A stretch of DNA of 64,000 nucleotides from contig CAWEJX010000015.1 of the NCBI GenBank assembly GCA_963809485.1, positions 128,001-192,000 on the forward strand, written 5' to 3'. This document shows, piece after piece, positions 21,936 to 37,180 of this stretch. How positions within the stretch are numbered: the stretch's first letter is position 1; each line of letters opens with the position of its first letter. A model generated the notes under the pieces. That model was not told the DNA's origin and did not search any database. It saw nothing but the letters and a program-made list of their open reading frames with translations. The stretch comes from an uncultured Acidobacteriota bacterium. Lineage in GTDB: Bacteria; Acidobacteriota; UBA6911. Position numbers and translations under genes: made by a program.

Positions 21936-21943
21936 GTCTGATC

Positions 21944-22621
21944 ATGCAAAAGATTCTTATCGTCGAAGACCAGATTGACCTGGCCAATGGTCTTGAAGTC
22001 AACCTGAAGAAGGAAGGCTATAAAATCCTCAAGACAGGAACTGGCGAGGAAGCAATCCAGATGGCAATCCGCGACTTGCCCGATCTAATCATCCTGGATA
22101 TCATGTTGCCCGGAATCAGCGGCCTGGACGTATGCCGGGAACTGCGCCAGAAATCGATCCGAATCCCGATCATCATGCTGACAGCCAAGAGCGAAGAAGT
22201 GGACCGGGTGATCGGGCTTGAACTGGGGGCAGACGATTACGTCACCAAGCCGTTCAGCCTTCGGGAACTGCTCGCCCGCGTACGGGTATGCCTGCGCCGC
22301 CAGCCGCAGCAGGCCGACATTCCACGCTATCGCTTCGGTCATGTCGAGATTGATTTTGAAAAGTATCGCGTGACGGTTCGAAACAAGCCGGTGGAAATGA
22401 CTCAAAAGGAGGTCGAGCTTATCCGATACATGATCCGAAACCGGGATACCGTTCTTTCTCGCGATCGGCTATTGGACGACGTATGGGGATATGATGCTTA
22501 CCCAACTACCCGCACTGTGGACACCCATATTTTGAAGCTGCGCAAGAAACTTGAGGACGATCCAGCTAATCCCAAATACATCCTTTCGGTTTACGGCGGA
22601 GGCTACAAATTTATTGGCTGA
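21944..22621 (+). CDS. OmpR-family response regulator
   Basis: ILIVED, LDIMLP, GADDYVTKPF, RTVDTHILKLRKK. Confidence 0.95.
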   Translation: MQKILIVEDQIDLANGLEVNLKKEGYKILKTGTGEEAIQMAIRDLPDLIILDIMLPGISGLDVCRELRQKSIRIPIIMLTAKSEEVDRVIGLELGADDYVTKPFSLRELLARVRVCLRRQPQQADIPRYRFGHVEIDFEKYRVTVRNKPVEMTQKEVELIRYMIRNRDTVLSRDRLLDDVWGYDAYPTTRTVDTHILKLRKKLEDDPANPKYILSVYGGGYKFIG

Positions 22622-22681: not shown

Positions 22682-23767
22682 TTGAATCAAAGGCTAAGAA
22701 TATTGGCCATGCCCCTTGAAGCCTCCAATCCCTGCATTAAATGGCCGCCACGCAGCGCCATTTTGATTTTCATAGTTCTGGTTCTCATAATTTCCTACGG
22801 GCTTTATATTGCCAGGCCTCCGACCCATGGCGCCATTGGCAACGGCAGGGTTGTAAATGATTCGGATTATTACATCAGCATTATCAAGCACATCCAGGCC
22901 GGCGAAAATTATTATGCGGCGGCAGCCAGTGAAATGCGCCAGAGACAAACTGAAAGCGGAAGCGCTTTTAACTGGCGATTGCCCACACTCTCCTTGCTTT
23001 TGGCAAATCTTCCAGGCGGGAACGCTCCAAATCTGTTGGCCTTTCTATTAGCCCTGGCGACGCTTTTGATCTGGATGACCATTTTCCATGAGAAGCGGTA
23101 TTCTCTGGTGCAGACGGCCATAGGCACGGTGATACTCACCGGGCCCCTGGCCTATAGCTTTCTGTCTGAGCCTATTCTGTATCATGAGTATTGGGCGGGA
23201 ATTCTTATTGCACTATCACTGGCAGTCTACGGGAAGGGTTGGTGGCGAATATCAGTTTTATGCGGCCTCGCCGCTCTTTCTGTACGAGAACTGGCACTCC
23301 CTTTCGTGTGCTTTATGGCGGTCCTGTCGTATGTAGAAGGCCGTCGACGAGAAACGCTGATCTGGCTATTAGGCATCTTTGCCTTTGGCGGAGCATACTT
23401 TTTTCACTGGTCACTGGCCTCAAGTTTTATCTTAGAAGAGAGTGCAGCCGTGCAAAAGGGGTGGCTGGCCTTCGGTGGCTGGCCATTTGTCTTGAGTACC
23501 GCTCAAATGCATCCCTACCTGTTAATCAGCCCGAAATGGATTACGGCAATTTTATTGCCCCTCGCACTTTTGGGCTATGCAGGATGTCCGGGCAAGCTGG
23601 GTTACAGGATTGCCGGTACGGTTGGAATATACGTGATAGCTTATTGCTTTTGGGGCCGGCCTGAGAATGAATACTGGGGATTGCTGTTCGCCTTCATCGC
23701 GCCCCTCGGGCTTTTAAATGCTCCCATATGTTTGAGAAGTCTCTGGCGCTCCGTGCATAATGCATAA
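22682..23767 (+). CDS. Polytopic membrane protein, GT-C-like
   Basis: N-terminal TM followed by an acidic loop (DSDYY..GENYY..FNWRLP), HEYWAG, VRELALP; about 9-10 TMs. Confidence 0.6.
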   Translation: MNQRLRILAMPLEASNPCIKWPPRSAILIFIVLVLIISYGLYIARPPTHGAIGNGRVVNDSDYYISIIKHIQAGENYYAAAASEMRQRQTESGSAFNWRLPTLSLLLANLPGGNAPNLLAFLLALATLLIWMTIFHEKRYSLVQTAIGTVILTGPLAYSFLSEPILYHEYWAGILIALSLAVYGKGWWRISVLCGLAALSVRELALPFVCFMAVLSYVEGRRRETLIWLLGIFAFGGAYFFHWSLASSFILEESAAVQKGWLAFGGWPFVLSTAQMHPYLLISPKWITAILLPLALLGYAGCPGKLGYRIAGTVGIYVIAYCFWGRPENEYWGLLFAFIAPLGLLNAPICLRSLWRSVHNA

Positions 23768-23831
23768 AACGAATAGGTCTCGCATTTTGGCAGATATAGG
23801 GGAGAGACTGTCGCATATTGACTCGTGATCG

Positions 23832-24918
23832 TCATGAACTGGCCGGATTGTCTTTGTGTTTCTTGCTTAGATGAGATGCAAGCGTGACTGTACCCAGCAA
23901 AAATACGGGCATCGCAACCCGGCTTCCGTTTGCGTCGGGCCCCAGAACGTCCAGGTTAAGGGAAGACAGAAGAAGCAACTGAAAAAGAATTGCTGCCCCC
24001 AGAGGGTGGCGCAGTTTCACAGTGATCAGAGCCCAAGCACCTATTCCCACTGCCAGAGGCACTAAATAATAGGCAAATAGCGTGTCGCCGCTCATCCAGT
24101 AACGTATGCTGTCTCGCCAGCCCGCAAGCGGTAGAGTGAACTCAATAATACCTCCTCGACCGTTCTCAACGAGAAAGTGAAGCGCCACCCACCAGGCTCC
24201 AGCGATTAAAGCTGGGATACCCGCCAGAATGAGGCCTTGCCGGTCTCGTCGCCAAACGGCAATCCCTAGTAACAACAACCAGGTCGGTTCCTTAGTCAGC
24301 GTTGCCAGGGTCCCTGCCCCCAAAGCCAATCGATGCCGTTCGTCGATCGAAAAAACAATGGCAGCAAGGCCGGCTGCAAGGGCCAGATTGTCTGCCGTGG
24401 AAATCCGCATACTCATGCTGGCTCCCGGCAAGAGAGCAAACACCAGTGTTGGCCACATGGGGCCCCCCAAGTTTGAGCGAAAGCAATCCTGTTGCCATCC
24501 CACCCGCAAAAAGCGAGAGTGCACCCACCAAGATTGTGGCCGTGATCAATCCTTTGCCGCCTCCGTGTGGATGAATCATCCAAACAAGAAGCGGAAATGC
24601 TATACGCTGAAGGCGATAACGGGGCCGATCCAAATCCGGGGCTATGCGGTTGGGGTGCAGCGGCTGACGCGCAATTGCATAGAATTGCTGGCCGTCGTGA
24701 CCCAATCCCGGGGGAAGCTTGGCGTTGGGAAAATCTTCAAGGAACACCCGGGCTGACGGCCCTTCCGCTCCGGGGAACACCATGCGGGCAGGATGGGTCC
24801 CCAGTAAATTCGCGGCCTTGATCGCACTCGTTGTGGTGAAGGCAGCCGAGACCAATGCAAGCAGCAATACCATAAGAAGTGCATTCCTCTGCACGACATG
24901 CGGCCGGGGCAGGTTCAA
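23832..24918 (-). CDS. AZOBR_p60025-like cell-surface glycopolymer membrane protein (GT-C-like); one extra base near 24465
   Basis: GHDGQQFYAIARQP..LDRPRYRLQRIAFPLL. Removing one G from the G6 run joins it to GGPMWP..TADNLALA..LTKE. Confidence 0.72.
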
Positions 24919-25079
24919 GATTGAAGTCTCCTTGCGTTAGACCAACGACAGACGCAGTTTGAATGCCATTTCCTGCATGGTCCCCTCCAAATCCTTTGCC
25001 ATTTTGGTCCATTCAGAAATGAGGAACAAGCGTAGATTTCAAATTTTAGGGCACTGCTTCGCTTCTCTTTGTCAGCAGC

Positions 25080-25295
25080 TGTCCATACTGCCTGGCGGCC
25101 TCTTCGATCTGTTGGGCTTCGGTATGTAGACTCGACGTACCGCCTGCGGATGATACTTCTCATTCCTAAGATCTTCTGCCAGTTCGCCCAGCCTCCTTAT
25201 CGCTCCGTAGGACTCAATATCCTCGAAACTCTCACCGTGTACCCCTGCTGCCCCGCCATTGGCTCGACAGCAGTCATATGCAAACGCCAAGATGT
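25080..25295 (-). mobile_element. ltrA: Remnant of a group II intron reverse transcriptase/maturase (N-terminal RT0-RT1 only)
   Basis: DILAFAYDCCRANGGAAGVHGESFEDIESYG..RLGELAEDLRNEKYHPQAVRRVYIPKPNRSKRP matches the NxGAxGVDG and YxPxxVRRVxIPKxxGxxRPLG motifs; truncated before RT2. Confidence 0.85.
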
Positions 25296-26762
25296 CTATC
25301 TCGGCCGAACGGCTCCGGCCACGTCAGTTATGGCAGGACGATAAACAGTGGTTTCCGCCAGATTCGCCATCGGCTCATAGTTCTGCATTATCGCGGCCAT
25401 CATATCGGGCGTCCAGCGTTCCGCGATCATTGACTCCGAAATGTTGGTAATCAAAACAAGGGCAAATTTGCGCGCCTTAATGTCTTCAACCACAGGACTC
25501 TGATCCCATTTACCCCTCACAGAAAGCCTTGCGAATTCATAGGGTTGTATCAAGACGTCCTTGTCGCAGACCACCAACGCGGCCATCATCTCATCCGCCA
25601 AAACGGATCCGGGAGTGGAACGAATTACCTCCTCTAATTGGCGCAGTTCCGGCTCGAATGCGCGACGGATCGATACCTGTGATGTGAAAATGCGGCTGCT
25701 ATCATAGGACCAATATATTTGAAAAGCCAAAGTCAATAGCAACAGAGAATGCAATAGAGCGGGAATTTCCTTGCGCCATCGAGAAAGGGCAAAACCAGTC
25801 AGCACACTCATGCCTGCAATGAATTCCAAGAAGTAGTTTATATGAGCGCCAATCTTGCCAACCGTCAGGCTGGAGAGGATTCCCCCCATTAGATAGGCAA
25901 CGGCGAGCCGCGACCATTGCTGACTTCGGATGAAATGAAAAAATTCAAATATAATCAACACAAAGAGTGGCGCATTAATGTAGAAATTTATTCCCCACAA
26001 ATTACCGAGCCCATTTAACATGAATTTGTCAGCAGTAGCGGTTACCGTATGGAAAAGGAAGCCACCATCTGTCAGCCAATTTAGAAATCCTCCAGTCGTA
26101 AGTACCGCAATCGCCAGAGAAGTGACAAATAGAAAAGCCTTGCGCCAACTGCGTGCGCCAAGAAAAACAAAAATGGCGAGAGGGCCGGAAAGCATGTGAG
26201 ATTGTCGAGTAAATATGGCCGCCAGAAAAAGAAGCAGAGAAAATCCCAGCCCCACCCGGGAATCCGGCCATCGAAACGCGACCAGAATCCCCCAAAGGCT
26301 AAGGGCTAAGGCGACCATATCTATTCGAGCCAGACAACCCCAGGTAATAACAAATGGAGAGCATAGGAACAAAGCTCCCGCAATTACTGCAGCCCATTTG
26401 TCTTTGGTAGCCTGGAAGATAATGAGTGCAATGGCCAGGCTGCATGATAGGGTTGCCAGCACCGATATCATTCGCCCGGTAGCATAGGAAAAACCCAGCC
26501 ATTGGCCCGCAAGCGATGTCATCAGCAGATAAATAGGGGGATAGTTGGCCAATATATAGGGGTAGTCGACCAGATCTTTGGCAGGGGGATAAATTGACCG
26601 TCCCTGAGCAAGATTCCGGGCCAGCACTAAAATTGTCCCTTCTCCATAGTCGAGCGGTACGCTGGCTTCCAGAGCATCTATTGAATGAAAAAGAAAGAAT
26701 CCCACCCCGGCTATAAGCAGGACCCCCAGAACAAAATAGGAAATGCCGGTTAGGTATTTCAT
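25296..26762 (-). CDS. ArnT/PMT-like GT-C glycosyltransferase
   Basis: PLDYGEG, NYPP.Y, GRMISV, ARIDM, FTRQ, GKIGA..NYF; many TMs. Confidence 0.8.
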   Translation of the reverse strand: MKYLTGISYFVLGVLLIAGVGFFLFHSIDALEASVPLDYGEGTILVLARNLAQGRSIYPPAKDLVDYPYILANYPPIYLLMTSLAGQWLGFSYATGRMISVLATLSCSLAIALIIFQATKDKWAAVIAGALFLCSPFVITWGCLARIDMVALALSLWGILVAFRWPDSRVGLGFSLLLFLAAIFTRQSHMLSGPLAIFVFLGARSWRKAFLFVTSLAIAVLTTGGFLNWLTDGGFLFHTVTATADKFMLNGLGNLWGINFYINAPLFVLIIFEFFHFIRSQQWSRLAVAYLMGGILSSLTVGKIGAHINYFLEFIAGMSVLTGFALSRWRKEIPALLHSLLLLTLAFQIYWSYDSSRIFTSQVSIRRAFEPELRQLEEVIRSTPGSVLADEMMAALVVCDKDVLIQPYEFARLSVRGKWDQSPVVEDIKARKFALVLITNISESMIAERWTPDMMAAIMQNYEPMANLAETTVYRPAITDVAGAVRPR

Positions 26763-27153
26763 CAGTCATTCGCTCCATCATCGGCCGCTCATAATAAACA
26801 TCATTTTATAAATTGGATCCAGATTAATAATGAAAATGCAGTCTTCGCCTGGGAAATATTGATTTTCAAGCGGGATGCTTCCCCCGACCGCGCCAGCAAT
26901 ACTCTGTAACGGCGCCATTCATTTGGTTTAAGATAGGTATTGGGGCGGATTCCTGGAGCGCGCCTGAATTGGTGTTTTGTTGGATTCGTGCCCTCCATCC
27001 ATCCGATATCTTTATATGATGTGCGGATACGGCAATCAGCCAATTTGAACGTGAAGAATGCATATTTCTAAACATCAGGCTGTTCTCGTGTCCTGCATAG
27101 AAATGATCGATATGGATTAGGAACGCACCTTAAACTCTTGATCGGATACCCGG

Positions 27154-28638
27154 ATGAATGACTCATTGACTCATCGTCACTGGTGGCGGCTTGGCCCCGC
27201 CAATTTGCTGGTTATCGCTCTGTTCACGGCTTTGCTGGCCACAGGCGCAACCCCTATTACGGACCCGGACCTATGGTGGCATCTTGCAACCGGGCGCTAC
27301 ATCGTTGAGACGCATAGCATTCCTCACAAAGATGTATTTTCATATACCGCGTCCGACCACAAATGGATTACCCACGAATGGCTGACCGAGGTGGGAATGA
27401 TTGGTTTGTATCGCCAAGGCGGTCAGGCAGCATTGATAATGGCAACCTCCATTATCATCACTCTTTCCTTTGCCATCATTTACATGCAATGCGCCGCGCG
27501 GCCGCATCTGGCGATTTTTGCGGTGCTCTTCAGCGCACTGGCCTCCGCCGTTACATGGGGGCCGCGTCCGCAGATTCTCAACATGCTCCTCACCGCCATC
27601 CTGCTGTATCTTTTGTACCAGCTTCGGCAAAAAAGGCGCCCCGTCTGGTGGGCATTTCCAGCGCTCATCGCGCTGTGGGCAAACCTGCATAGCGGCTATT
27701 TTTTGGCCTATATCATCATTGCTTCGGTTCTTATCAGCGATTTGCTTGCCCATCTTCTCGATTACCGCACCTCTGCCACTCTCGACGGACGCGCATTGCG
27801 GAATCTGGCTCTGGTGCTGGGCGTTTGCATCATAGCTGCGGGCCTTAATCCCAACGGCTACAAAATATTATGGTATCCATTTGAGACATTGAGCAGTCAG
27901 GCAATGCAGAAATATATCCAGGAATGGGCGCCGCCGGCCTTCAACCAGCCCCGATATTGGCCGGCCATTGCCCTGTTATTTGCCGGAGTTTTGGCCTTTA
28001 TACTAAGCCGCCGGAGGCGCGATCTTACCGATCTGACGCTCTTTTTCGGGCTGTTATTTATGGCCCTGCTCTCAGCTCGACACATTCCCTTTTTCGCCCT
28101 CGTCTCCGCGCCAATGCTGTCACGATACTTTTCGGATGTCGAGTTGGGACGGCTGCGCTGGGACTTGTCTGCTCCATACTTGCCTCGCCCGATGCCTAAT
28201 GCGCTTGTGCTTATCAACTGGCTGCTTGTGCTGGTGTTTGTCGCGGTTGGCGCATCCCGAGTATCCAAGGTGCTGGCAGAAAACCAGCAGGTAAATCCGG
28301 CCCGCTTTCCTGTCCATGCCGTCGAATTCGTCCAGCGGCAGGGATTGGCCACACAACGGATCTACAATTCTTACGACTGGGGCGGATACCTGATATGGCG
28401 GGGTTTCAAAGTCTTTATCGACGGACGCGCCGATGTCTACCTGGATGATTTTATCAATCAATATGCACTTGCCTATTTGATTCAGGATGACTGGCGTGTC
28501 CCCCTGAACAAATTTTCCGTGGATTATATCCTCATCGAGCGGCAGGCACCGCTGGCAATCCTGCTGCGGGAAACCGATGAGTGGCGGCAAATCTATAAGG
28601 ACGATCTCGCAATCATCCTATCGAGATTGCGTCCATAG
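27154..28638 (+). CDS. GT-C-like membrane protein, DxDxWWHL family
   Basis: ITDPDLWWHLATGRYI..IP..D.FSYT, THEWL, RPQ, LWANLHSGY, IQEW, WGGYLIW..FIDGRADVY. Confidence 0.78.
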   Translation: MNDSLTHRHWWRLGPANLLVIALFTALLATGATPITDPDLWWHLATGRYIVETHSIPHKDVFSYTASDHKWITHEWLTEVGMIGLYRQGGQAALIMATSIIITLSFAIIYMQCAARPHLAIFAVLFSALASAVTWGPRPQILNMLLTAILLYLLYQLRQKRRPVWWAFPALIALWANLHSGYFLAYIIIASVLISDLLAHLLDYRTSATLDGRALRNLALVLGVCIIAAGLNPNGYKILWYPFETLSSQAMQKYIQEWAPPAFNQPRYWPAIALLFAGVLAFILSRRRRDLTDLTLFFGLLFMALLSARHIPFFALVSAPMLSRYFSDVELGRLRWDLSAPYLPRPMPNALVLINWLLVLVFVAVGASRVSKVLAENQQVNPARFPVHAVEFVQRQGLATQRIYNSYDWGGYLIWRGFKVFIDGRADVYLDDFINQYALAYLIQDDWRVPLNKFSVDYILIERQAPLAILLRETDEWRQIYKDDLAIILSRLRP

Positions 28639-28755
28639 CGCTCTGCTGCGCTCTTGATCCGCTTCAAGCCAAGGGTAACCCACTAATAGGCTCCCCAGGA
28701 TCAAGTAGCGGGCTGATAAAAGGCCTGTGCAATGAAAATGTAGCAGCCCAAACAT

Positions 28756-29955
28756 CTACGATCCAGACTCCCTTCGGTTTGCCAATAAGGCGCTCCTGCT
28801 TGCTTTGGCTGACTTGCCACCAAGCCAGTAAAGAATCCAGAGCGCAAAGGGCACCCAAAGGTTGGTGAACTCGCCATAGTTGAAATAGGAAAACTTGCAG
28901 GCAATGATTACGACGGCGAGCTGAATACCGGCAAGGCCTGCCGCCAACCACCAATTACGAGCCGGACTGTGCGCGAACCAGACCAAAACCATAATCACAA
29001 CAGGAAGCAAGACAACCCAATCTGTCGTCCAGCAGAAACTGCAGGTCGCGATAGAGAAGAGGAGTATGGAATTCAGGTGGCTGTTCCAGGAGAAATTTGG
29101 CATCCACCGGTGATGCAGAAATATGGTGCCTAACCAACCTGCCAGCATCGGGACAAAACGCAACCACCAAATGGCAGGGGAAAACAGGCACATTAGCAGG
29201 ACGCCTGATGACGGCGTCATCCAAACAAGCGGCCCGGGGCCTGACTTTAGAGCGGCCAGGTATCCAAAGATAGCCGAAGGGTTGATTGCCAAAATCAAGC
29301 ATACCGAGACCAGTAAAAAAATGAGCGTCCCAGCCAAAATCCGCCAGCGCCGTCTCTTCCAGATCCAGAACACAAGTACGATCCAGAACAGATGGATCAG
29401 CTGCGGTTTGAGCGAAATCGCCAGGGCGGCAAAACCACCCGCTAAATCGTGTTTTTGGTCAATAGCCCAGAGAAAAACTATCAAGCCTCCCAGCACCAGC
29501 AAATTGACCTGACCCTGAAACAGAGCCAATAGACAGGGAAGAAACAACAACCCGCCAAGCCAGCCAATCCACCGTCTGGTCGGCGGCCCGCCTGATTTCA
29601 GCCATAGCCAGTCTGCCCCATAAACCAATATTCCGATCCCGACAACGAAAAAAACGCCCCTTGCAATCCCATAGGGCATCAAGATAAAGGGAAGCATAAA
29701 TAAGATAGTCCAGGGCGGATTCCACATAATAGCCGGATTTTCACTTACCCCAACGCTCTTCTGAACCTGTAGAAGCTCATTGGCGCTATATGGATCTCCG
29801 CCCGATAAGAACACTCTGCCGGCCGACCAGTAATTCAGAAAATCGCCAAATTTGAGGAGACCGGATGAAACTGCGCCATCTATTTTGTAGACAATCCAGG
29901 CAGAGAGACCAAGAATGAGAATCCAAATAGAAATGCGTCGAATGCTCATTCCCAT
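28756..29955 (-). CDS. GT87/DUF2029-like glycosyltransferase
   Basis: GDFLNYWSAGR..GGDPY, WNPPW, GQVN, LKPQL. Confidence 0.82.
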   Translation of the reverse strand: MGMSIRRISIWILILGLSAWIVYKIDGAVSSGLLKFGDFLNYWSAGRVFLSGGDPYSANELLQVQKSVGVSENPAIMWNPPWTILFMLPFILMPYGIARGVFFVVGIGILVYGADWLWLKSGGPPTRRWIGWLGGLLFLPCLLALFQGQVNLLVLGGLIVFLWAIDQKHDLAGGFAALAISLKPQLIHLFWIVLVFWIWKRRRWRILAGTLIFLLVSVCLILAINPSAIFGYLAALKSGPGPLVWMTPSSGVLLMCLFSPAIWWLRFVPMLAGWLGTIFLHHRWMPNFSWNSHLNSILLFSIATCSFCWTTDWVVLLPVVIMVLVWFAHSPARNWWLAAGLAGIQLAVVIIACKFSYFNYGEFTNLWVPFALWILYWLGGKSAKASRSALLANRRESGS

Positions 29956-30049
29956 CTGACCTATCTACCCCCGGTTAGCTGCACAGTTTCATAAGTTGTA
30001 TGGACCGGTAATTCATGCACGTGCAAAACGGGGTATCTTCCTCTTCAAG

Positions 30050-31174
30050 CTAGGTGCTCACTGGACTGATTTTGGTTGCAGGGAGCCTTGAGTCGTGGAC
30101 CAACAGCACTATCAGCGCGACCAATGCCGCGAGCAAAATGCCGCCGTAGCGAAGCAATTGAAAAATGTATGGTATGGATGAAAAAAGAAATAGGCTGACG
30201 TAAGTTGTCGGCCTTCGGCCATGCTTAAAAGCAAAGAGCAGAATCGGCAAAAGCAAAAGGCAATCATAGACGTAGCTATGGGAGGTTAGCAGGATGCCCC
30301 CGAGGGCTGCAAATCCATATGAAATTTCAAAATCCGGATGCTTCACTATCCCATAAAGAATTAAAGCAAGAGTCAGTGCAGCAGCATATGCTTCAAGCCC
30401 GGTATTCTGGAAAATACTGTAGATATTGGGCATGGTCCCCATGCCGAGTGACATGTAAGAGCTGCGAATAATATTGTAGTATTCTTTTGGCCATCCAAAC
30501 CCTGCAACAAGAGTGCTGCCGGCTATCCAAAGGGCAACGCCAGATGCAGCGCCACCGAACATTTGCCACCTCTTGTGACGAATGAGCGCGAAGGGAACGA
30601 GAAAAAACAAATGGAACTTGATCAAGCAGGCTGAAAGTGCCAGTCCGGCGAGCCAATGCCGGCCTCTTCTGGCCAATAACAGGCTGGCAGTAAAAAAGAA
30701 AAGGACCAGCGTCACGTCCTGCCCCCTGCCGAGTGCGTGCATCAGTGGAAAAAACAAAAGCATTACAGCCACAATGAGCCTATTCCTCGTCATGAGCAAG
30801 ATCGACCATATGGCAGCCCCCAGGCTCAGGATTTGAAAGAGAAGGTATGCCGTGCGATAGGGCATCCAAGTAAATGGGCGCAGCAGCGCGGCATAGACCG
30901 GAGGCCGGGTGTAATATATTCCGATTGGATGCCACCCCACCGTTCGTTTATGAAATTCCTCGTTTCCCTGAAACGAATACAATTGGTTCGTTCCAACAAG
31001 CGAAGCTCCGGTATAGAGCACGAGGAAATCCTCATGCCCGCGGCCGAATCCGGCCCAATCCATTGAAATACTCCAGAAACACATAGCGGAGAACAAGCCC
31101 ATCAGAATGATCAGGTAGATCAGATAGGTCGAATAATCCGCCGTTTTCCACAGTTTTCCGTCCGGGATATCCAT
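30050..31174 (-). CDS. GT87/DUF2029-like glycosyltransferase
   Basis: DFLVLYTGA, YTRPPVY, GQD, IKFHL, HSYVYD. Confidence 0.8.
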   Translation of the reverse strand: MDIPDGKLWKTADYSTYLIYLIILMGLFSAMCFWSISMDWAGFGRGHEDFLVLYTGASLVGTNQLYSFQGNEEFHKRTVGWHPIGIYYTRPPVYAALLRPFTWMPYRTAYLLFQILSLGAAIWSILLMTRNRLIVAVMLLFFPLMHALGRGQDVTLVLFFFTASLLLARRGRHWLAGLALSACLIKFHLFFLVPFALIRHKRWQMFGGAASGVALWIAGSTLVAGFGWPKEYYNIIRSSYMSLGMGTMPNIYSIFQNTGLEAYAAALTLALILYGIVKHPDFEISYGFAALGGILLTSHSYVYDCLLLLPILLFAFKHGRRPTTYVSLFLFSSIPYIFQLLRYGGILLAALVALIVLLVHDSRLPATKISPVST

Positions 31175-31459
31175 CTTTATCTTTTTTACGAGGCCTTATT
31201 ACACCTGCGTGTAAATTATTAGTATCGAAATTGATCGGGCCATTGACGGAATACGGTTCCACGCACATCTTACCTGTGAAACGGATGAGACGGAAGCGAG
31301 ATCTGCAAGCAGCCTGACTCCCCTCTTGTACGGCCGGGGGCTGATAGCGTTTGAAAACGTTCAGATACAGTCCCATGTCTGAAACAAGATCCGAAAATGC
31401 GTAACCCTGTCCGGGATCCGGTTCTTGACGCAATGGGGAGAGAACGCTAATCTTCGTCC

Positions 31460-32659
31460 GTGAAACACAGATGGCATTTTTTCCTCATACTCTCCGTAAT
31501 AGCCCTGGTCTTTCGATTCGTGCTGAGCATGTCATGGGTCGAAGTTGCGGATACGGCCAACTATCGCACAGTAGCAGAGACCCTGGCCGCTGGAGGTCAC
31601 CTGTACAGAGACACTCCGGGGATCTATCCATATCCCCCGGTTTGGGCTGTTTTCGAACGCGTTGCACTTTACCTGTCACAGAACAGTCCGCTTCCGTTCC
31701 GCCTTTGGATCGAAATTCCCGGGATGCTTGGGGATCTCGGCATTGCGTTGCTTCTTTTTAAAATCGGGAAGTCCTCTCTTTTGTTCGCCTCGCTTTATCT
31801 TTTCAATCCCATTTCGATCGCGATATCCTCGATGCATGGCCAGTTCGATTCGATACCGGTTTTTTTTCTGCTGCTTGCGTGCTTTATCTTTCAGGATCTC
31901 GGCCGTCCCTTCATCGCAATGACCAGCCTCGCAGCCGGAATAGCCCTGAAGTCCTTTCCGGTATTGATGCTTCCCTTTTTCCTCATTCGGATCCGGACTG
32001 TACAGAAGAAGGTCATCGCTCTAAGCATCGCCGTGGGCCCCGTTATTTGCCTGCTGTTCCCATTTTATCTGGCAGACAGCCAGGCTCTGGCAAGACAGCT
32101 CTTCGGGTATGGCGGAGTTGCGGATCATGGTTGGCTTGTGGTTGCGAAAGCAATGGCTGCCTTAATTAAGCCTTCCTTCATCCCGGCTCTCTTGCCGTTT
32201 GGCACGATTTTGGGATTGGCTGCATTCGGCGCGTGCCTGACAATTGCGGGCATCAAGATGTCACAGCTGGTCAGATCGGGTCATGATTTGAACCTTTATG
32301 ATGCTTCCGCATTGGTTTTTACAGCCTTTTTCGCATTCTATCCAGGCATAAGCAGCCAATATTTCATCTGGCTGCTCCCCTGGCTGATTATGCGGGACAG
32401 GGAATCAGCAGCAGTTTACACGGTTTTATCATCCCTTGCGCTGGCAGCCTTCTATGCTTATATATGGCCCGATATTCTATACGGCCCCTTCGATCATATA
32501 GTGGCAGCCCCTTCGTTGCTGGTTGTCCTCTATTTGGGATTCACGCTCTTGTGGTGGCTATTCTGCTTCACACGCTTGCCTTCAATATTTATAAAAGCAA
32601 CCAGGGTCTCCCTTCGAGATTCCCGTCCCGATAGCAATCCTGTCCATGAAGAGGCGTGA
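31460..32659 (+). CDS. GT87/PIG-M-like GT-C glycosyltransferase
   Basis: ADTANY, YPYPP.W, LYLFNP, HGQFDSIP, LKSFP, QYFIWLLP. Confidence 0.8.
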   Translation: MKHRWHFFLILSVIALVFRFVLSMSWVEVADTANYRTVAETLAAGGHLYRDTPGIYPYPPVWAVFERVALYLSQNSPLPFRLWIEIPGMLGDLGIALLLFKIGKSSLLFASLYLFNPISIAISSMHGQFDSIPVFFLLLACFIFQDLGRPFIAMTSLAAGIALKSFPVLMLPFFLIRIRTVQKKVIALSIAVGPVICLLFPFYLADSQALARQLFGYGGVADHGWLVVAKAMAALIKPSFIPALLPFGTILGLAAFGACLTIAGIKMSQLVRSGHDLNLYDASALVFTAFFAFYPGISSQYFIWLLPWLIMRDRESAAVYTVLSSLALAAFYAYIWPDILYGPFDHIVAAPSLLVVLYLGFTLLWWLFCFTRLPSIFIKATRVSLRDSRPDSNPVHEEA

Positions 32660-32769
32660 TGTCCTGTGGCTGTCGCCAATGCCCGGTAATTCCACTTTAG
32701 AAAATCGGAGTCCGGCGCACGTGCAAGTCCGGCGCGGCAGGTGTATTATCGGCATGGAGTGATGCCGCA

Positions 32770-34860
32770 ATGCCGGAGACCGATTACGAAGAGACATTCC
32801 ATCAACCTCAAACCAAAATTCCCCGTGGCAGGCAGCAGCATAAAATTTCAACGTGGATATTGCTGATTGCCGCGATAACACTTTTAGCCCTGGCCATGCC
32901 CGCCCTGCTGGGCCGCGTGTACACAGCCGACGACCTGGGAGAATTCCATCTGCCAATCCGGGACTTCTACGCTCGACAACTGGCCGCAGGCGCACCCTTC
33001 GAGTGGATGCCGGACCTTTATGGCGGATTTTACATTGCAGCCGAAGGCCAGTTAGGGGCCTATCATCCGTTCCACTGGATCCTGTATCGTGCCCTGCCGC
33101 TTCCGATGGCATTTAACCTGGAATTATTGGCCAGCTATCCGATCCTGTTCTGGGGGACCTGGTTGCTGTTGCGCCGTTTAACAGGCAGTAATCCGGCAGG
33201 CCTTTATGGGGCACTCGTTTTCACCTTCGGCAGTTTCATGCTGCTTCACTTCATACACACCAATGCCATCGCGGTCATTGCGCATCTGCCCTGGCTTTTG
33301 CTGATGTTGGATATCGCTCTGGGAACCGAGGTACGCTGGAGACAGGCGACAGCCGAAATGGCTCTTGGCTTATTGGTTGCCTCGCAGTTGCTTCTAGGTT
33401 ATCCCCAGTGCGTATGGTTTACGGCATTGGCCGCGGCCGGCTTGATGGTCTGGCGCTATTCACAGATCAACAAGCCGCTGCATCGCATTGCATCCATATT
33501 GGCAGCCGCTTGCCTTGGCATCGCAACAGGGGCTATCCAATGGCTGGCCACGCTGCAGCTGCTCAACAATTCCACCCGCCAAACAGTCGATGAAGCCTTT
33601 ATCAACACAGGGTCATTGCATCCTCTGAATCTGGTGCAGCTGGTAGCGCCTTACCTTTTTAAGGCGCGGGTCGCAGGGCAAAACACGCATGAATTGGGCA
33701 TATATATGGGCGCCGTACCGCTGGTTCTTTGCATATGGCTGCTGGCCCATCGAAAGCTGTGGGCAGAAAAGCGGAAACTTATTAGAGCCCTGCTCGTTTT
33801 CGGAGCCTTTTCTCTGCTGCTGGCGGCCGGCGAATATGGGGGGTTATACCGCCTGCAGTCATTCATTCCGGTAATTGACCGCTTTCGGTTTCCCTGCCGG
33901 GCTATCGTTCTCGTTCAATTTTGTGCTGCCGGCTGCGCGGGCCTGGCGTTTGCCCTTCTCATGGAACATCCGGGAGTTTTCCAATCGAGCAGGCGATCCC
34001 GCGCCCTGCCGCTTGTGCTCGTCGTTTCCATTGCGTTAGCCCTCATCGGGCCCATCATTCTTCCGAATTATGTTTCAAGACCGCTCTTGGTATGGCTGGG
34101 TCCTGCTCTAATAGCCTCGGCGATTATTCTGGTTTCCCGGGCGGCTCGAGGTTCGCAAGCCGCCTTGTGGGGCCTCGTGCTATTTACGGCCGTGGATCTA
34201 GCCACCTACGGATTAAGCTATTCGGTTTGGCACAAGACCTCCAAACTTGCCGGTTACGTCGCGGCAGCGCCGCGGCCGCCAACAGGCATTAAGGCAAGGG
34301 TCGTCGCGCCCTCAGGAAAGGCCGGGCAGAGCATCGGCAATCATATGTTGTTGGCCGGCTTGACCCGAGTTGACGGCTATGCCGGCCTGCAGCCCACCCG
34401 GCAGCTCGACTATTCTCAAGAGTCTACATGGCGACTGGCCGGGGTCCAGTGGGCCTATCTGCCCGATGGCAAAACCGGCCGGCACAAATGGCATGAAATT
34501 TCTCCGTCAGCTCCGAGAGCACAGTTGCTCGATTCCGACGATGCGGACACTGTTGTCCTCCGCGACTCTCCAGGAAATATTGAAATCGCTGTGCGCACCG
34601 GCACTCAGGCTATGCTGGCCACTACCGAATGCTACGATCCGGGCTGGCATGTTACGGTCGATGGGAGGGACGGAGAAGTTTCACGCGTTGAGAACGATTT
34701 TCTGGGCTGCGCGGTTGCAGCCGGAAGGCACATCGTACAATTCAAATTCCGGCCGCGATGCCGGGAATCCGGGAGCCTTATCTCTTCCGTCAGCCTCGGA
34801 TTGCTGGCTTTGTTTTTTGGCTTGCGATTAAATGCCTTAAAGCGCCAGATGCCGGATTAA
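32770..34860 (+). CDS. YfhO-family GT-C membrane protein
   Basis: DDLGEFHLP..W.P.LYGGF..AEGQ.G.YHP, GYPQ, FRFPCR; C-terminal YDPGW.VTVDG..V.AG.H.V.F.F.P YfhO signature. Confidence 0.85.
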   Translation: MPETDYEETFHQPQTKIPRGRQQHKISTWILLIAAITLLALAMPALLGRVYTADDLGEFHLPIRDFYARQLAAGAPFEWMPDLYGGFYIAAEGQLGAYHPFHWILYRALPLPMAFNLELLASYPILFWGTWLLLRRLTGSNPAGLYGALVFTFGSFMLLHFIHTNAIAVIAHLPWLLLMLDIALGTEVRWRQATAEMALGLLVASQLLLGYPQCVWFTALAAAGLMVWRYSQINKPLHRIASILAAACLGIATGAIQWLATLQLLNNSTRQTVDEAFINTGSLHPLNLVQLVAPYLFKARVAGQNTHELGIYMGAVPLVLCIWLLAHRKLWAEKRKLIRALLVFGAFSLLLAAGEYGGLYRLQSFIPVIDRFRFPCRAIVLVQFCAAGCAGLAFALLMEHPGVFQSSRRSRALPLVLVVSIALALIGPIILPNYVSRPLLVWLGPALIASAIILVSRAARGSQAALWGLVLFTAVDLATYGLSYSVWHKTSKLAGYVAAAPRPPTGIKARVVAPSGKAGQSIGNHMLLAGLTRVDGYAGLQPTRQLDYSQESTWRLAGVQWAYLPDGKTGRHKWHEISPSAPRAQLLDSDDADTVVLRDSPGNIEIAVRTGTQAMLATTECYDPGWHVTVDGRDGEVSRVENDFLGCAVAAGRHIVQFKFRPRCRESGSLISSVSLGLLALFFGLRLNALKRQMPD

Positions 34861-34964
34861 CCGGCCACCTGCGATCCGATGGTTGAAGGGACATGCCAGG
34901 ATTGGCAGGCGCGGCAAGAATTCTGTGTGATACACAGACTATGCGCATCCAGTCTATCAAATCA

Positions 34965-36533
34965 TCATGGTTCGGATCCCTTTTCGAAAAGAATGGAAAG
35001 GCTGTCCTCATAACATGGCAGCCAGCGGCCTGAGCTCCGCGCGGCTTCAATGAGCCTTTTTGAATCCTGATCGTTTTTGTCTTTGGGCAACAAAAGGTAT
35101 CGAATTCCGTATTTTTGCAGAAGCTTTTCCCACGCGGAATCCTGAAAAATCCTAAAATATGACTTCACAAATGCTTCATCGAAAAGATGCACCCTGCCGT
35201 CAAAAAAGGAGCGCTGCCTGGGCCAGAGCCTCCAGATAAGATAATCCCCATACACCTGAGGATGAAAAATATTACCCTGCAAATTATTCCGATCAATAAA
35301 ATCCATGGCTTTGATCGGCGTGGCGGCTTCCTGAAGCGTGTCCTTACGCAACCATATGCGCATCCAGGGAGACTGTAAAACCAAAACAAGAACCATCGCA
35401 ATCAGAATGCCCCTATTTAAAAATGGCACCTCTCCTTTCTTGCGTACTTCCCGAGTGCGGTGCGCTGCTGTGCTAATGAATCTATCCAGATGCACAACAG
35501 ACCAGTCGATTTTTGTCAAATAACCGGCAATCATAGGCGCCGACACAATCTGGAACCAGACGCAGTTGCGCAGCGAAGCCATGGCGTAAGCGCCGAACGC
35601 CAGGTAAATCGCGATTTCAGCAAAAGCCGGCCTCCGGCTTGAACTGATAAGCAAAAAGGTCAGAAGGAAAAAGGGGAGGTAGAACATAATGAAACCATCG
35701 CTTGAATTCACTGCGGGAGGCTGCCATTCGCTGACGTATTTTTGAACAGAAGAGGCATTTAGGATTGTCCGGACATAATCATATACGCGGAAAAATTCCG
35801 GATTTGCCAGGGTAGCCATGAGGCAGAGAACGAAAACCAAGCCGAGCGTCTTTAATCGTCGAATGCCTGCCGCATCATGGTTTCTTCCGGCCAAAACCTC
35901 TATCGATTCGCAGGCCAGGAAAATGAGGATCAGAACCAGGCCTATTATGAAAGCTCCATGAAGGTTCACCCACAAAATCATCAAAAATGGCAGGGCATAT
36001 ATTGCGCCGTTCGGTCTCGATCGATGGGACCAAAGAATCCAATAGAAAAATGAGAAAAGCAGACTGGAGAATACCTGGGGCCGAAGATTCCATGGGAAGC
36101 AAAAACCGACAAGTAGAAGAGAGACGACCGACGGCCATACCAGCTCCGTCGCTTTTCTGCAAAGGAAGGCCAGCGGCAGCAGGATCAGAAAAAGCAATAC
36201 ACCATTGCAAAAACCCACCAGCGCAAAGCCGCCCACCTTATAGATCCAATAAAACAGAACGTCGGCAAGCCAGCTCTGATCGACAAATGCTTCGCCGGCC
36301 GCGGTGAAAGAGAAAATATCGGTTCGCGGGATGGAACGAGTTTCGAATATGACCTGGCCCAATTTGAGATGCCAATAAAAATCCAACAGGCCGAGCGGAG
36401 CAAGAAACCCTCTCACGGCGGCGAAAAAGAGGGGAATGGCAAACCAAAGATGCCGCAGGGTCGGTGCGGGCCAATGCAGTTTTTGAATAAGGCCATTGCT
36501 CGGTACGCTTGATTTACTCATCGTCGCTTCCAT
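34965..36533 (-). CDS. GT-C-like membrane protein, paralog of 27154..28638
   Basis: LDFYWHLKLGQVI..IP..DIFSFT, RPQ, LWVNLHGAF, VSEW, GDYLIW..FFDGRVHLF. Confidence 0.78.
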   Translation of the reverse strand: MEATMSKSSVPSNGLIQKLHWPAPTLRHLWFAIPLFFAAVRGFLAPLGLLDFYWHLKLGQVIFETRSIPRTDIFSFTAAGEAFVDQSWLADVLFYWIYKVGGFALVGFCNGVLLFLILLPLAFLCRKATELVWPSVVSLLLVGFCFPWNLRPQVFSSLLFSFFYWILWSHRSRPNGAIYALPFLMILWVNLHGAFIIGLVLILIFLACESIEVLAGRNHDAAGIRRLKTLGLVFVLCLMATLANPEFFRVYDYVRTILNASSVQKYVSEWQPPAVNSSDGFIMFYLPFFLLTFLLISSSRRPAFAEIAIYLAFGAYAMASLRNCVWFQIVSAPMIAGYLTKIDWSVVHLDRFISTAAHRTREVRKKGEVPFLNRGILIAMVLVLVLQSPWMRIWLRKDTLQEAATPIKAMDFIDRNNLQGNIFHPQVYGDYLIWRLWPRQRSFFDGRVHLFDEAFVKSYFRIFQDSAWEKLLQKYGIRYLLLPKDKNDQDSKRLIEAARSSGRWLPCYEDSLSILFEKGSEP

Positions 36534-36967
36534 AATTCTTACTCATCGAGCAATGGCTTCCCTTTATTATCATTTTGACCGTTACCATAGAAAAAACGTG
36601 AATGGATTTCAATATCCATCTTCGTTCGGCTTTAGAAATCTGCCGTTATCGGGGCTTACGCAGGAGCGGATCCGGACCGCAAGGCCGCAAATGCATCATC
36701 GTAATTAGGGATAAAGTAATGCAGATCACAAGTCGATGAGAGTTCTCAGCGGAGGGTGCCGTGGGCCGGGAATTGGCTGCAGGATATCCGGAAAAAAGGA
36801 GTCATTCAAAAAAGTGCTTTTTGCAATTGTTGACTTTTTGATGACAATTCGACTCCGGCCTATCCGGATAATTTAGCGGTAGGTCCAATTTGGGCGCGAT
36901 CCCCAACCCAAGGGAAGAAACAAATGCAGTCGACAATATTGGCAAAAGGAATTTTTAAAAAAGGAGA

Positions 36968-37180
36968 ATGCATAAAATGTTGAAACTTTACACCTGGTTC
37001 AAAACGACCGCCGACGATTTAAAGCAGAAGCTCAACCAAGAGGAAGGTCAGACGATCATCGAATATGCGCTGATTATCGTCCTGATTGTACTTGTTGCAT
37101 TGGCTACTGCCCCGACCATCGGCGCAGCAATAGCAAATGTCTTCTCGCGGGTGATTGCCAGCTTGACAACCGGAAGCTAG
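36968..37180 (+). CDS. flp: Flp/Fap (Tad) prepilin; start may be 36977
   Basis: EEG|QTIIEYALIIVLI Flp motif, AAGGAG RBS, 70 aa. Confidence 0.93.
   Translation: MHKMLKLYTWFKTTADDLKQKLNQEEGQTIIEYALIIVLIVLVALATAPTIGAAIANVFSRVIASLTTGS

Follow-up and report, generated by a model that had tools for sequence, protein, structure and literature searches.

A Tad-linked array of GT-C glycosyltransferases as a candidate periplasmic glycosylation island in an uncultured Acidobacteriota bacterium

Nine consecutive genes (g1 to g9) in a 64,000-nucleotide stretch of DNA from an uncultured Acidobacteriota bacterium (the window) all encode polytopic proteins with evidence of a GT-C fold, and the last of them, g9, belongs to a family that is linked to flp and tad genes in three phyla, with GT87 and PMT_2 genes as recurrent companions. 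The reading that we favor, with confidence that is evenly balanced, is a Tad-linked periplasmic glycosylation island for which the Flp pilin is the likeliest candidate acceptor.

The nine-gene array and its surroundings

The open reading frames initially annotated between 22682 and 36533 are present as described (Table 1), and by a crude Kyte-Doolittle scan every intact product has 5-10 hydrophobic segments. The initial annotation had also placed all nine in the GT-C class and had named modeling as the check; the proteins either model with a GT-C fold or fall in GT-C families, on the evidence of two AlphaFold models (g1 and g9), Pfam matches to GT87 or YfhO (g5, g6 and g8), homologues carrying PMT_2 or GT87 domains, and the paralogy of g4 with g9.

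Table 1. Features of the window; positions are counted from its first nucleotide.
Feature	Position	Strand	Description
Gene A	3..1199	-	PMT_2-type GT-C, continues past window edge
Radical SAM/SPASM-GT2 fusion	1306..3359	-	Pfam assignment
Nucleotide-sugar genes	6298..11296	-	Pfam: NeuB-like, epimerase, DegT aminotransferase, 4,6-dehydratase in two ORFs, nucleotidyltransferase
Genes B, C	11824..15155	-	Two paralogous polytopic proteins; C frameshifted; putative GT-Cs
UDP-galactopyranose mutase (Glf)	15407..16579	+	PF03275 at 6e-70
GT2, ArnC/PgfS-like	16610..17344	+	NCBIfam PRK10714 2.1e-16, below cut-off; candidate donor supply
Histidine kinase (HK) and OmpR-type response regulator (RR)	20895..22621	+	Pfam; conserved anchor at the array's other side
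g1	22682..23767	+	Minimal GT-C, 361 aa, without soluble domain
g2	23832..24918	-	Polytopic, AZOBR_p60025 family; two frames in assembly
g3	25296..26762	-	PMT_2-related GT-C
g4	27154..28638	+	g9 paralogue; same family, different clade
g5, g6	28756..31174	-	Two GT87 glycosyltransferases
g7	31460..32659	+	GT87/Gpi18-like GT-C
g8	32770..34860	+	YfhO-family GT-C
g9	34965..36533	-	GT-C enzyme, family without Pfam model; divergent from flp
g9-flp intergenic region	36534..36967	.	434 bp, divergent
flp	36968..37180	+	Flp-type pilin, 70 aa; predicted mature form 43 aa after G27
Tad operon	37440..46661	+	cpaB, cpaC, tadZ, cpaF, tadB, tadC, DUF192 gene, 148-aa ORF, AAA ATPase
Gene D	57354..59786	-	810-aa PMT_2/GT87-like GT-C
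GT2, polyprenyl-phosphate sugar synthase-like	60175..60918	-	NCBIfam PpgS 7.5e-29, AglJ 1.9e-23, both below cut-offs; candidate donor supply

The g9 product, which has a 120-aa C-terminal α/β domain, had no match in Pfam or NCBIfam, and none of its homologues (at least 485) carries a Pfam domain. When its AF2 model (pLDDT 91.1, pTM 0.89) was compared with known structures by Foldseek, 28 matches were obtained at E ≤ 1e-3; those listed were GT-C enzymes, with STT3 at the top (2.7e-7). Superposition by VIA-align gave a Z of 19.2 for STT3 (450 residues aligned, 17..522; rmsd 5.2) and 17.7 for AglB (445 aligned; rmsd 4.4), followed by Pmt4 (17.6), DPY19 (17.2), PglB (16.6), and ArnT (15.7). Over its full length, C-terminal domain included, g9 is closest to the oligosaccharyltransferases and stands among the protein-modifying GT-Cs (oligosaccharyltransferases, PMT, and DPY19). 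Asp51 in the first loop is invariant across 59 sequences.

The AF2 model of g1 (pLDDT 91.1) is matched by ALG9 (Z 15.2) and ArnT (Z 15.1), and every one of the 41 rows with Z ≥ 7.4 is a GT-C or PIG-U chain, the next row falling to 4.5; the 239 g1 homologues lack Pfam domains, apart from one among them with a GtrA-like match (PF04138). The two halves of g2, separated by a frameshift at a C6 run (24463-24468) and represented by an intact 367-aa orthologue in genome G005, each match NCBIfam NF046093 (4.8e-11 and 9.6e-16; below the 150-bit cut-off). For g3, no Pfam match exceeded its cut-off in the genome-wide scan (PMT_2, 24.1 bits); homologues number 3705 representatives at E ≤ 1e-3, and PMT_2 (PF13231) was found in 23 of the 52 that were aligned (best 5.1e-14). 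The paralogue g4 shares 27% identity with g9 (1.5e-46) and groups in the family tree with Anaerolineae members that have no tad linkage. GT87 (PF09594) is matched above cut-off by g5 (4.1e-9) and g6 (1.4e-16), homologues of g7 (1e-40 to 1e-85) carry PF09594/PF26314, and g8 matches YfhO (PF09586, 4e-15) together with DUF6044.

The window makes up about 1% of the genome and has a GC fraction of about 0.50 versus 0.555 genome-wide; it contains 3 of the genome's 18 PMT_2 matches and 3 of its 4 GT87 matches in the genome-wide scan, as well as both of its g9-family genes. Four further GT-C genes had been suggested outside the array, two of which are supported by PMT_2 matches over cut-off: gene A, a 635-aa frame when read past the window edge (PF13231, 32.1 bits), and gene D (PF13231, 28.6 bits; PF09594, 30.3 bits). 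Genes B and C, which are 35-53% identical to each other, are putative GT-Cs, with only weak DUF6798 matches and an hhalign probability of 27.5% against the g3 family. Following the radical SAM/SPASM-GT2 fusion is a 148-aa ORF whose translation, read by eye, has two hydrophobic segments and which presumably resembles the C-terminal membrane part of a GtrB-type enzyme. A scan of 52 ORFs of the window gave no match to a Wzx, Wzy, or ABC-2 family, in agreement with the initial annotation, which had recognized neither wzx/wzy nor wzm/wzt, and no flippase was recognized in the window.

On the far side of g9, across an intergenic region that presumably holds both promoters, the flp product matches PF04964 at 1.7e-6 (28.1 bits, under the 32.2-bit cut-off), contains G/QTIIEY, which fits the G/xxxxEY motif, and can be aligned with 27 Flp genes found beside g9-family genes. 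The Tad operon that follows has Pfam matches to RcpC, Secretin, ParA-like, T2SSE, T2SSF (twice), and DUF192, and is syntenic with operons in G012, G020, G005, and G018 (58-90% identity).

Linkage of the g9 family to flp and tad

We collected 78 g9-family loci from public genomes, 41 of them with full flanks, and searched within 8 kb for tad genes by tblastn, adding Flp by HMM. In these counts, which include related genomes and so are non-independent samples, a tad gene was found by tblastn in 35 of the 78 loci (22 of the 41 with full flanks) and at least two different tad genes in 30. With the Flp HMM, 40/78 loci had Flp or a tad gene within 8 kb (Acidobacteriota 23/34, Chloroflexota 16/42, Pseudomonadota 1/2); the distance from the g9-family gene to an Flp gene was 1 kb or less in 20 loci from three phyla and 3 kb or less in 30. 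Neither tad nor flp was found in the available flanking DNA of 38 loci, and both were absent for 20 of the 89 g9-family gene rows with full flanks.

A sample of 151 genomes from the phylum (G204 included) contained the g9 family in 54 and cpaB in 24. Both occurred in 12, and in all 12 they share one contig at a distance of 19 kb or less (10 kb or less in 8). Of 85 PMT_2 genes used as a control in 5 of these genomes, none is as close as 20 kb to cpaB. The family is not specific to Tad: cpaB is missing from 42 of the 54 family-bearing genomes, 12 of the 24 with cpaB lack the family, and copies are often several (up to 9 matches per genome). Tad linkage is concentrated on the family tree. The clade of g9 (21 rows, SH-aLRT 98) comprises 17 tad-linked rows, 3 unlinked rows, and 1 whose flank is short, and the corresponding numbers in a second clade are 18, 1, and 4; the tad label requires 17 changes versus 30.1 for shuffled labels, with none of 500 shuffles as low.

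A g9 orthologue is divergent from flp in G012, G017, G020, G055, and G057 (43-60% identity). In the complete genome G012 it directly adjoins RR (as do the orthologues in L035 and L040), and g1-g8 are absent between the two, from which we conclude that g1-g8 form a variable insert. In G005 and G018 it is the opposite end of this tad operon that carries g1, a g2 in one frame, and a g4-like gene, with the g1 orthologues at the 3' end of the operon. In two other genomes flp is likewise flanked by a comparable array, with 6 to 7 or more GT-C genes: L031 (cpaB-flp<>g9-PMT_2-like-YfhO-GT87x3, the YfhO gene being a 65%-identical orthologue of g8) and G041, over about 26 kb (flp x3 <> GT87-PMT_2-GT87 ... 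PMT_2-GT87-TadG-like-g9-RR-HK). A GT87 gene stands beside a g9-like gene within the tad loci of G209 and G076, in the latter between cpaB and cpaF, and g3-like genes adjoin g9-like genes in L050 and L063. The cultured species Vogesella fluminis has a complete set, TadV-flp-flp <> g9-family GT-C-MT-MT-small EamA protein-GT2. The linkage to tad that the initial annotation expected in relatives thus exists for g9, with GT87 and PMT_2-type genes as companions, but not for g1-g8 as a fixed block.

Flp as acceptor and competing explanations

The Ser/Thr-rich tail of Flp had been offered as support for glycosylation; this argument fails because Flp tails from genomes without the g9 family are also Ser/Thr rich. 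The tails have no conserved N-x-S/T sequon or acceptor motif, and no Ser/Thr signature distinguishes family-bearing genomes from the others. Prediction of a complex between g9 and Flp gave a score of 0.59 (runs 0.58, 0.59, and 0.61; best of three controls 0.01), with at least 74% of contacts agreeing between runs and a partner pLDDT of at least 64. Of 157 solved complexes, 116 pass the mark for this score, as do 2 of 215 mismatched pairs; these counts apply only roughly here because our own alignments were used, and scores of 0.60 or less include only 18 of the 157 solved complexes, yet both passing mismatches. The score lends weak support to the pairing, and the packing of a membrane helix on a membrane protein can be spurious. 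A cryo-EM structure of the C. crescentus Tad pilus is reported to show no glycan density (PMC10710030).

A serious rival, although we think it rather unlikely, is that the array uses polyprenyl-P-sugars in the periplasm to make a surface glycopolymer anchored to lipid or to the envelope, either a lipoglycan or an adhesive polysaccharide, and sits beside tad only through shared HK-RR co-regulation of pili and matrix for adhesion, with Flp not the acceptor. The set of nine to thirteen unlike GT-Cs, accompanied by Glf, NDP-sugar genes, and three GT2 genes, with Wzx/Wzy not recognized, resembles the make-up of mycobacterial LAM and arabinogalactan assembly, and the many GT-Cs plus Glf are closer to lipoglycan or cell-wall polymer assembly than to known pilin glycans. 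The NCBIfam name of the g2 family is 'cell surface glycopolymer formation protein', members of the g9 family are present in the 42 sampled genomes without cpaB, and HK/RR is found in 11/78 g9-family loci, 10 of which have tad. Against this stand the immediate proximity of Flp genes in the 20 loci from three phyla, the insertion of g9-like and GT87 genes between cpaB and cpaF in G076 and of a TadG-like gene within the G041 array, the resemblance of g9 to protein-modifying GT-Cs, and the separation of the far commoner PMT_2 genes from cpaB.

It is less probable still that enzymes of the g9 family glycosylate a broad range of periplasmic proteins, as PglL or PglB do, with pilin one of many substrates and the proximity to flp historical. 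The frequent, often multicopy occurrence of the family without cpaB and a fold nearest to general oligosaccharyltransferases would suit such a role, but tad linkage extends to nearly all members of two large clades (17/20 and 18/19 evaluable rows), so that Tad-dedicated subfamilies fit better than one general enzyme. The chance arrival of an unrelated, horizontally acquired glycan island beside tad, to which the lower GC of the window and the G012 arrangement might point, is very improbable and already contradicted by the linkage counts, given the recurrence of the g9-flp neighborhood in three phyla, the 12/12 co-localization of cpaB with the family, and the differently composed arrays flanking flp in L031 and G041.

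Proposed pathway

In the Tad-linked glycosylation island that we favor, g9 would be the core, and the other members (g1, g2, the PMT_2-like g3, the paralogue g4, three GT87 genes, and the YfhO gene) a lineage-variable cassette between g9 and the conserved HK-RR pair. GtrB/PpgS-like GT2s would charge polyprenyl phosphate with sugars supplied by the neighboring Glf and NDP-sugar genes, and the lipid-linked sugars would be flipped across the membrane. Using its invariant Asp51, g9 may then place the first sugar on a periplasmic acceptor, most likely the membrane-anchored Flp pilin before assembly. Of the initially proposed multi-enzyme platform acting on Tad pilin or a surface glycopolymer, the GT-C folds and the tad linkage through g9 stand, and the argument from the Flp tail does not. 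g9 is a specific, still unproven candidate for the glycosylating enzyme of Tad (Flp) pili, on which the remaining GT-Cs may lengthen or decorate the glycan to produce a strain-specific coat.

Nine GT-C-type genes ending at flp

The window belongs to contig C15 of a host genome of 6.04 Mb, assembled in 21 contigs with a GC content of 0.555. By the names of its homologues, the organism falls among uncultured Acidobacteriota. ORF calling placed nine genes, g1 to g9 in genomic order, upstream of the pilin gene flp, and a crude hydropathy scan gave 5-10 hydrophobic segments for each intact product. The flp gene is divergent from g9, 434 bp away, and encodes a 70-aa Flp pilin that matches PF04964 (1.7e-6) and carries a G/QTIIEY motif.

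Coordinates of features in the window and, where a handle precedes the position, in other contigs and loci
Position	Strand	Feature	Remark
3-1199		gene A	outlying candidate GT-C
1306-3359		radical-SAM-GT2 fusion	split; third GT2 resembling polyprenyl-P-sugar synthases
1306-1752	-	ORF after the fusion	resembles membrane tail of GtrB-type enzyme
1779-3359	-	radical SAM/SPASM-GT2 fusion ORF	unusual
3655-5466		TPP enzyme	split
9533-10544		4,6-dehydratase	split
11824-15155		genes B and C	outlying candidate GT-Cs
13484-15155		gene C	split
16610-17344		GT2 resembling polyprenyl-P-sugar synthase	below equivalog cut-off
17377-18399	-	340-aa product	no Pfam family; sole hydrophobic segment at N-terminus
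19242-20660	-	AAA-type ATPase
20895-22621	+	histidine kinase and OmpR-type response regulator (HK-RR)	5' of g1
22682-36533	mixed	g1-g9	candidate GT-C genes
22682-34860		g1-g8	insert
24463-24468		C6 run	site of the g2 split
34965-36533	-	g9
36968-37180	+	flp	Flp-type pilin gene
37440-46661	+	tad operon	cpaB, cpaC, tadZ, cpaF, tadB, tadC, DUF192 gene, small ORF, AAA ATPase
45381-46661	+	AAA-type ATPase
47067-52120	-	two signalling genes	response-regulator-PAS-GGDEF-EAL protein; MASE1-GAF-PAS histidine kinase
52347-56385	-	second filament gene set	GspH-like and GspK-like pseudopilins
57354-59786		gene D	outlying candidate GT-C
60175-60918		PpgS-like GT2 (7.5e-29)	candidate polyprenyl-P-sugar synthase, below equivalog cut-off
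G000:C16:114873-115268		Peptidase_A24 match	281-aa frame, other contig of host genome
L075: 9475-11297		methyltransferases	Vogesella fluminis locus
L025: 8282-9229, 13512-14438		methyltransferases	g9-family locus
L040: 14804-15886		methyltransferase	g9-family locus, G041 array

Against the GT87 family PF09594, g5 and g6 scored 37 and 61.5 bits, both above the gathering score of 25 bits; g7 had no Pfam match itself and was assigned to GT87 solely through homologues (1e-40 to 1e-85) bearing PF09594/PF26314. The product of g8 matched YfhO (PF09586) at 55.7 bits against a gathering score of 28.5, with the match confined to the last 70 residues of the model, and additionally DUF6044. When the genome was scanned with PF13231 (PMT_2), g3 fell below the gathering score (24.1 bits), and 23 of 52 aligned g3 homologues had a PMT_2 match. 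The two halves of g2, described in the initial annotation as AZOBR_p60025-like, do match the family of that name (NCBIfam NF046093; 42.3 and 57.7 bits), both short of its 150-bit cut-off; a literature search for AZOBR_p60025 turned up no paper. g4 is a paralogue of g9 (27% identity).

Neither g1 nor g9 matched a family in Pfam or NCBIfam, and their structures were predicted with a pLDDT of 91.1 each. The g1 model matched ALG9 (Z 15.2) and ArnT (15.1) and a total of 41 GT-C/PIG-U entries down to Z 7.4, the next entry standing at 4.5; it is thus predicted to share the GT-C superfamily fold. Sequence kinship of g3 with g1 (hhalign probability 22.9%), g3 with g9 (0.2%) and B with the g3 family (27.5%) was considered and dropped, these probabilities being too weak. 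Searches of PDB sequences with the g9-family and g3-family profiles and with the single sequence of B gave no relevant match.

The window, about 1% of the genome, holds 3 of its 18 PMT_2 genes, 3 of its 4 GT87 genes and both of its g9-family genes; the clustering is real. Given this clustering and the fold or family evidence for the nine genes, the array of nine unlike GT-C-type genes ending at flp that had been read from the sequence is confirmed. As for the four outlying genes placed in the same class, A (32.1 bits) and D (28.6 bits) exceeded the PMT_2 gathering score, and B and C had only weak matches.

The g2 gene breaks at a run of six C residues, and its orthologue in the related genome G005 is intact; taken singly, the break may stem from faulty assembly or slippage, or mark a pseudogene. 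Five genes of the window are found in two ORFs (g2, gene C, the 4,6-dehydratase, the TPP enzyme and the radical-SAM-GT2 gene), and tadB and tadC are likewise split in the relative G018. The number of split genes, the position of the g2 break exactly at the C6 run and the split tadB/tadC together tentatively suggest assembly indel errors rather than pseudogenes. In four metagenome runs from four studies (bioreactor, sediment, soil and freshwater sediment), the region 22682-37180 was represented by scattered contigs of 150-385 bp at 90-100% identity and low depth, none of which covered the C6 run. Among RNA data sets, none was listed with sequence from 27200-37180.

Predicted fold and closest analogues of g9

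The g9 model gave Z scores of 19.2-10.2 against the 50 entries listed, which were nearly all GT-C enzymes and included three GPI-transamidase PIG-U chains. STT3 ranked highest (Z 19.2 over 450 residues, 17..522), with AglB at 17.7, DPY19 at 17.2, PglB at 16.6 and ArnT at 15.7; Pmt4 reached 17.6 over the membrane part only. STT3 was also the top Foldseek match (2.7e-7). The model thus predicts a GT-C superfamily fold for g9. Residue D51, invariant in 59 of 59 sequences, lies just past the helix 26-44 and, with the loop orientation inferred, corresponds to the acidic residue of the first extracytoplasmic loop. No Pfam family, STT3 (PF02516) included, matched g9 even at E<=10, and its profile retrieved no GT-C from PDB sequences. 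STT3, AglB and PglB are the best whole-length structural matches, C-terminal domain included, yet they share just 8-14% sequence identity with g9, which is not a sequence member of PF02516.

The oligosaccharyltransferases STT3, PglB and AglB carry a C-terminal WWDYG motif, and AglB N-glycosylates archaeal type IV pilins. In the g9 family the C-terminal domain contains a nearly invariant HPQxYGDYLIWRLWP, so that, compared by sequence rather than by structural equivalence, g9 has YGDYLIW where the oligosaccharyltransferases have WWDYG.

PilO/TfpO and PglL are Wzy_C-type enzymes that move preassembled Und-PP-glycans; in contrast, Pfam found no Wzy_C-type family among the window ORFs. All of them modify pilins, and the TfpO gene adjoins pilA (see also bioRxiv 10.1101/2020.04.19.049825). 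According to the same preprint, TfpW of P. aeruginosa group IV is a GT-C that acts as pilin D-arabinofuranosyl transferase and whose gene lies directly beside the major pilin gene pilA; glycosylation of the pilin requires an acidic motif in the first periplasmic loop of TfpW, and a polyprenyl-phosphate donor pathway supplies the sugar. Like tfpW, g9 is a GT-C gene adjoining a major pilin gene (434 bp away here; in 20 of the 78 family loci, no more than 1 kb). The pilin of TfpW is of type IVa, whereas that next to g9 is of the Flp/Tad type, and up to eight more GT-Cs stand alongside g9. In architecture, TfpW (646 residues) ends in a TPR domain and is best modelled on ArnT, whereas g9 (522 residues) best matches STT3 and AglB, and its last 120 residues or so (400-522) fold as a domain of mixed alpha/beta type for which Pfam gives no TPR match. 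TfpW is the closest functional analogue of g9, and STT3, AglB and PglB are its closest structures.

Linkage of the g9 family to tad loci

The g9 family is large (at least 485 members), and no member carries a Pfam domain. When species-representative genomes were scanned, 571 relatives emerged, from which 78 loci in Acidobacteriota, Chloroflexota and two Pseudomonadota were kept. Using tblastn with the Tad proteins of the window, we found a tad gene in the flank (<=8 kb) of 35 of the 78 loci and at least two different tad genes in 30; where >=7.5 kb was present on both sides, 22 of 41 loci had one. An HMM built from Flp sequences gathered in this analysis detected a Flp gene in 38 loci; its distance from the GT-C gene is at most 1 kb in 20 of them and at most 3 kb in 30. 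With both detections combined, 40/78 loci have a Flp or tad gene.

Of 151 genomes sampled evenly from the phylum, including the unpublished G204, 54 carry the family and 24 carry cpaB. Twelve carry both, and in every one of these a family member shares a contig with cpaB at a distance of no more than 19 kb (8/12 within 10 kb); cpaB occurs without the family in 12 genomes and the family without cpaB in 42. PMT_2 genes of five genomes in the sample served as a control for GT-C abundance: of 85, none lies within 20 kb of cpaB; among GT87 genes of the same five, the only one of G076 and two of the five in G209 adjoin a g9-like gene. Among 89 family genes placed in a quick maximum-likelihood tree, the well-supported g9 clade holds 17 tad-linked rows, 3 unlinked and 1 with a short flank, and a second well-supported, acidobacterial clade holds 18, 1 and 4, respectively. 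The remaining clades, that of g4 among them, are unlinked to tad, and the linkage is therefore a trait of subfamilies rather than of the whole family. The linkage to tad for which relatives were to be searched is thus present, mainly in the g9 family.

Orthologues of g9 with 43-60% identity stand divergent from flp in five relatives (G012, G017, G020, G055 and G057). In the complete genome of the same genus, G012, the response regulator directly adjoins the g9 orthologue, which is followed by a pair of flp genes and then the tad operon; g1-g8 are therefore inserted between anchors conserved on either side. G005 and G018 have orthologues of g1 and g2, a g4-like gene and the same HK-RR immediately past the 3'-terminal gene of the tad operon, and G016 has HK-RR and flp with no GT-C gene within the 8 kb examined. 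A locus whose g9 is 66% identical (L031) reads cpaB-flp<>g9-PMT_2-like-YfhO-GT87-GT87-GT87. In G041, with L040 and G041:C6 taken as one contig on account of their equal lengths, three flp genes lie opposite GT87-PMT_2-GT87-methyltransferase-epimerase, and the g9 orthologue with RR-HK follows about 26 kb farther, after further PMT_2, GT87 and TadG-like genes. GC content was discarded as a marker of the insert: the whole window, at about 0.50, lies below the genome value of 0.555, and g1-g8 are no lower than the tad operon.

Methyltransferase genes (class I, FkbM type) recur within the GT-C arrays that are linked to tad in Vogesella and G041, and their products may methylate the glycan. One metagenome protein is 94% identical to g7, and the best g9 homologue on a contig of equal length (21,970 bp) is only 73% identical (P0241/P0004). 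If this is one contig, divergence along the array would be very uneven, which, if real, would indicate cassette exchange or fast evolution of g9.

Genes for two AAA-type ATPases, paralogues with about 38% identity, bracket the HK-RR/GT-C/tad super-locus as a whole, and both are kept in relatives; Vogesella has one between cpaB and TadV. The 340-aa product is kept beside the histidine kinase in G012, G017, L040 and L042 (33-47% identity). A prepilin peptidase gene is absent from the tad locus, and the genome's only Peptidase_A24 match is on another contig. Right after the tad operon come two signalling genes, which suggest cyclic-di-GMP control of the neighbourhood, and then the pseudopilin genes of a second filament gene set. 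At the far end of the window, the radical SAM fusion and its tail ORF have homologues that occur together near g4-like genes in three g9-family loci (L065, L070 and L072).

Candidate donor supply, proposed acceptor and implications

On the membrane's outer face, GT-C enzymes take the sugars they transfer from polyprenyl-phosphate carriers. Three GT2 genes in the window resemble polyprenyl-P-sugar synthases, and the window also has Glf and a group of genes for NDP-sugars. The clearest picture of a complete module, as judged from gene content, is the Vogesella fluminis locus, with TadG, CpaC, CpaB, AAA, TadV, flp and flp on the tad side and, transcribed the other way, a g9-family GT-C of 581 aa, two methyltransferases, an EamA-type membrane protein of 117 aa and a GT2 of 340 aa. 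Systems of the Gtr/Arn type (GtrA/GtrB/GtrV, ArnC/ArnEF/ArnT, CsbB/GtcA/YfhO) combine a GT2 synthase, a small flippase and a GT-C, and all three component types lie beside flp in Vogesella. The window has GT2 candidates, YfhO and many GT-Cs in place of one, and no flippase was recognised among its ORFs. The targets of the known three-component systems are O-antigen, lipid A or teichoic acids; none is known to act on pilins.

In the mechanism we propose, g9 would place the first sugar on membrane-anchored Flp, and the variable GT-Cs (GT87, PMT_2-like, YfhO, g1 and g2) would lengthen the glycan in the periplasm, giving a strain-specific coat. Flp is favoured as the acceptor of g9, and the other GT-Cs as extending the glycan, because of the pilin adjacency, as for tfpW and pilA, the protein-modifier-like fold and weak co-folding support: g9 with Flp scored 0.59 and the best control 0.01, in a pass class to which 18 of the 157 solved complexes belong, along with the two mismatched pairs that passed at all. 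PMC6182317, citing Inoue 2000, states that Aggregatibacter Flp1 is glycosylated. Full-text searches, without supplements, found no paper joining a GT-C enzyme with Flp/Tad.

The large number of unlike GT-Cs, taken with Glf, would fit a glycopolymer built in the periplasm at least as well. Mycobacterial Pmt, PimE/GT87, Emb and Aft are unlike GT-Cs that act serially on polyprenyl-P-sugars outside the cytoplasm, and Glf belongs to mycobacterial galactan synthesis. The window likewise has several unlike GT-Cs, GT87 included, plus Glf, a set that suits such a polymer; it differs in phylum and envelope, in having no Emb/Aft sequence matches and in being coupled to a pilus operon. Also against Flp as the acceptor, the aligned neighbouring Flp genes show no conserved N-x-S/T sequon or acceptor motif, and the family is common without Tad. 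The Ser/Thr-rich Flp tail, noted initially, was abandoned as an argument: tails are Ser/Thr rich without the family too (1-3 Ser+Thr in the last 15 residues without it and 2-4 with it, a tiny comparison of regex-detected Flps from 3/12 and 6/11 loci, respectively), and no alignment column tells family genomes from cpaB genomes without the family. The C. crescentus Tad pilus shows no glycan density according to PMC10710030.

The proposal of a multi-enzyme glycosylation system acting on the Tad pilin or the surface accordingly survives in its GT-C folds and families and its tad linkage and loses its Ser/Thr tail; the interpretation that the locus falls among pilin- or surface-glycosylating GT-C systems, now with a candidate enzyme, is partly supported. 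The narrower reading, that the g9 clade is a dedicated, oligosaccharyltransferase-like Tad Flp glycosyltransferase adding the first sugar to the membrane-anchored pilin for its neighbours to extend, is tentative, and we give it somewhat less than even chances.

Tad/Flp pili are widespread organelles of adhesion and colonisation, and the nameless oligosaccharyltransferase-like family beside flp in Acidobacteriota, Chloroflexota and one cultured betaproteobacterium supplies a concrete candidate gene. Vogesella fluminis KCTC 23713 is cultured and carries the module, which makes the Flp-glycosyltransferase reading testable there. If true, this reading would account for how Tad pili of abundant soil phyla vary at their surface, would add one more family to the protein-modifying GT-Cs, and would provide both the first enzymology of Tad pilus glycosylation and a bacterial counterpart to AglB-dependent archaeal pilin glycosylation.
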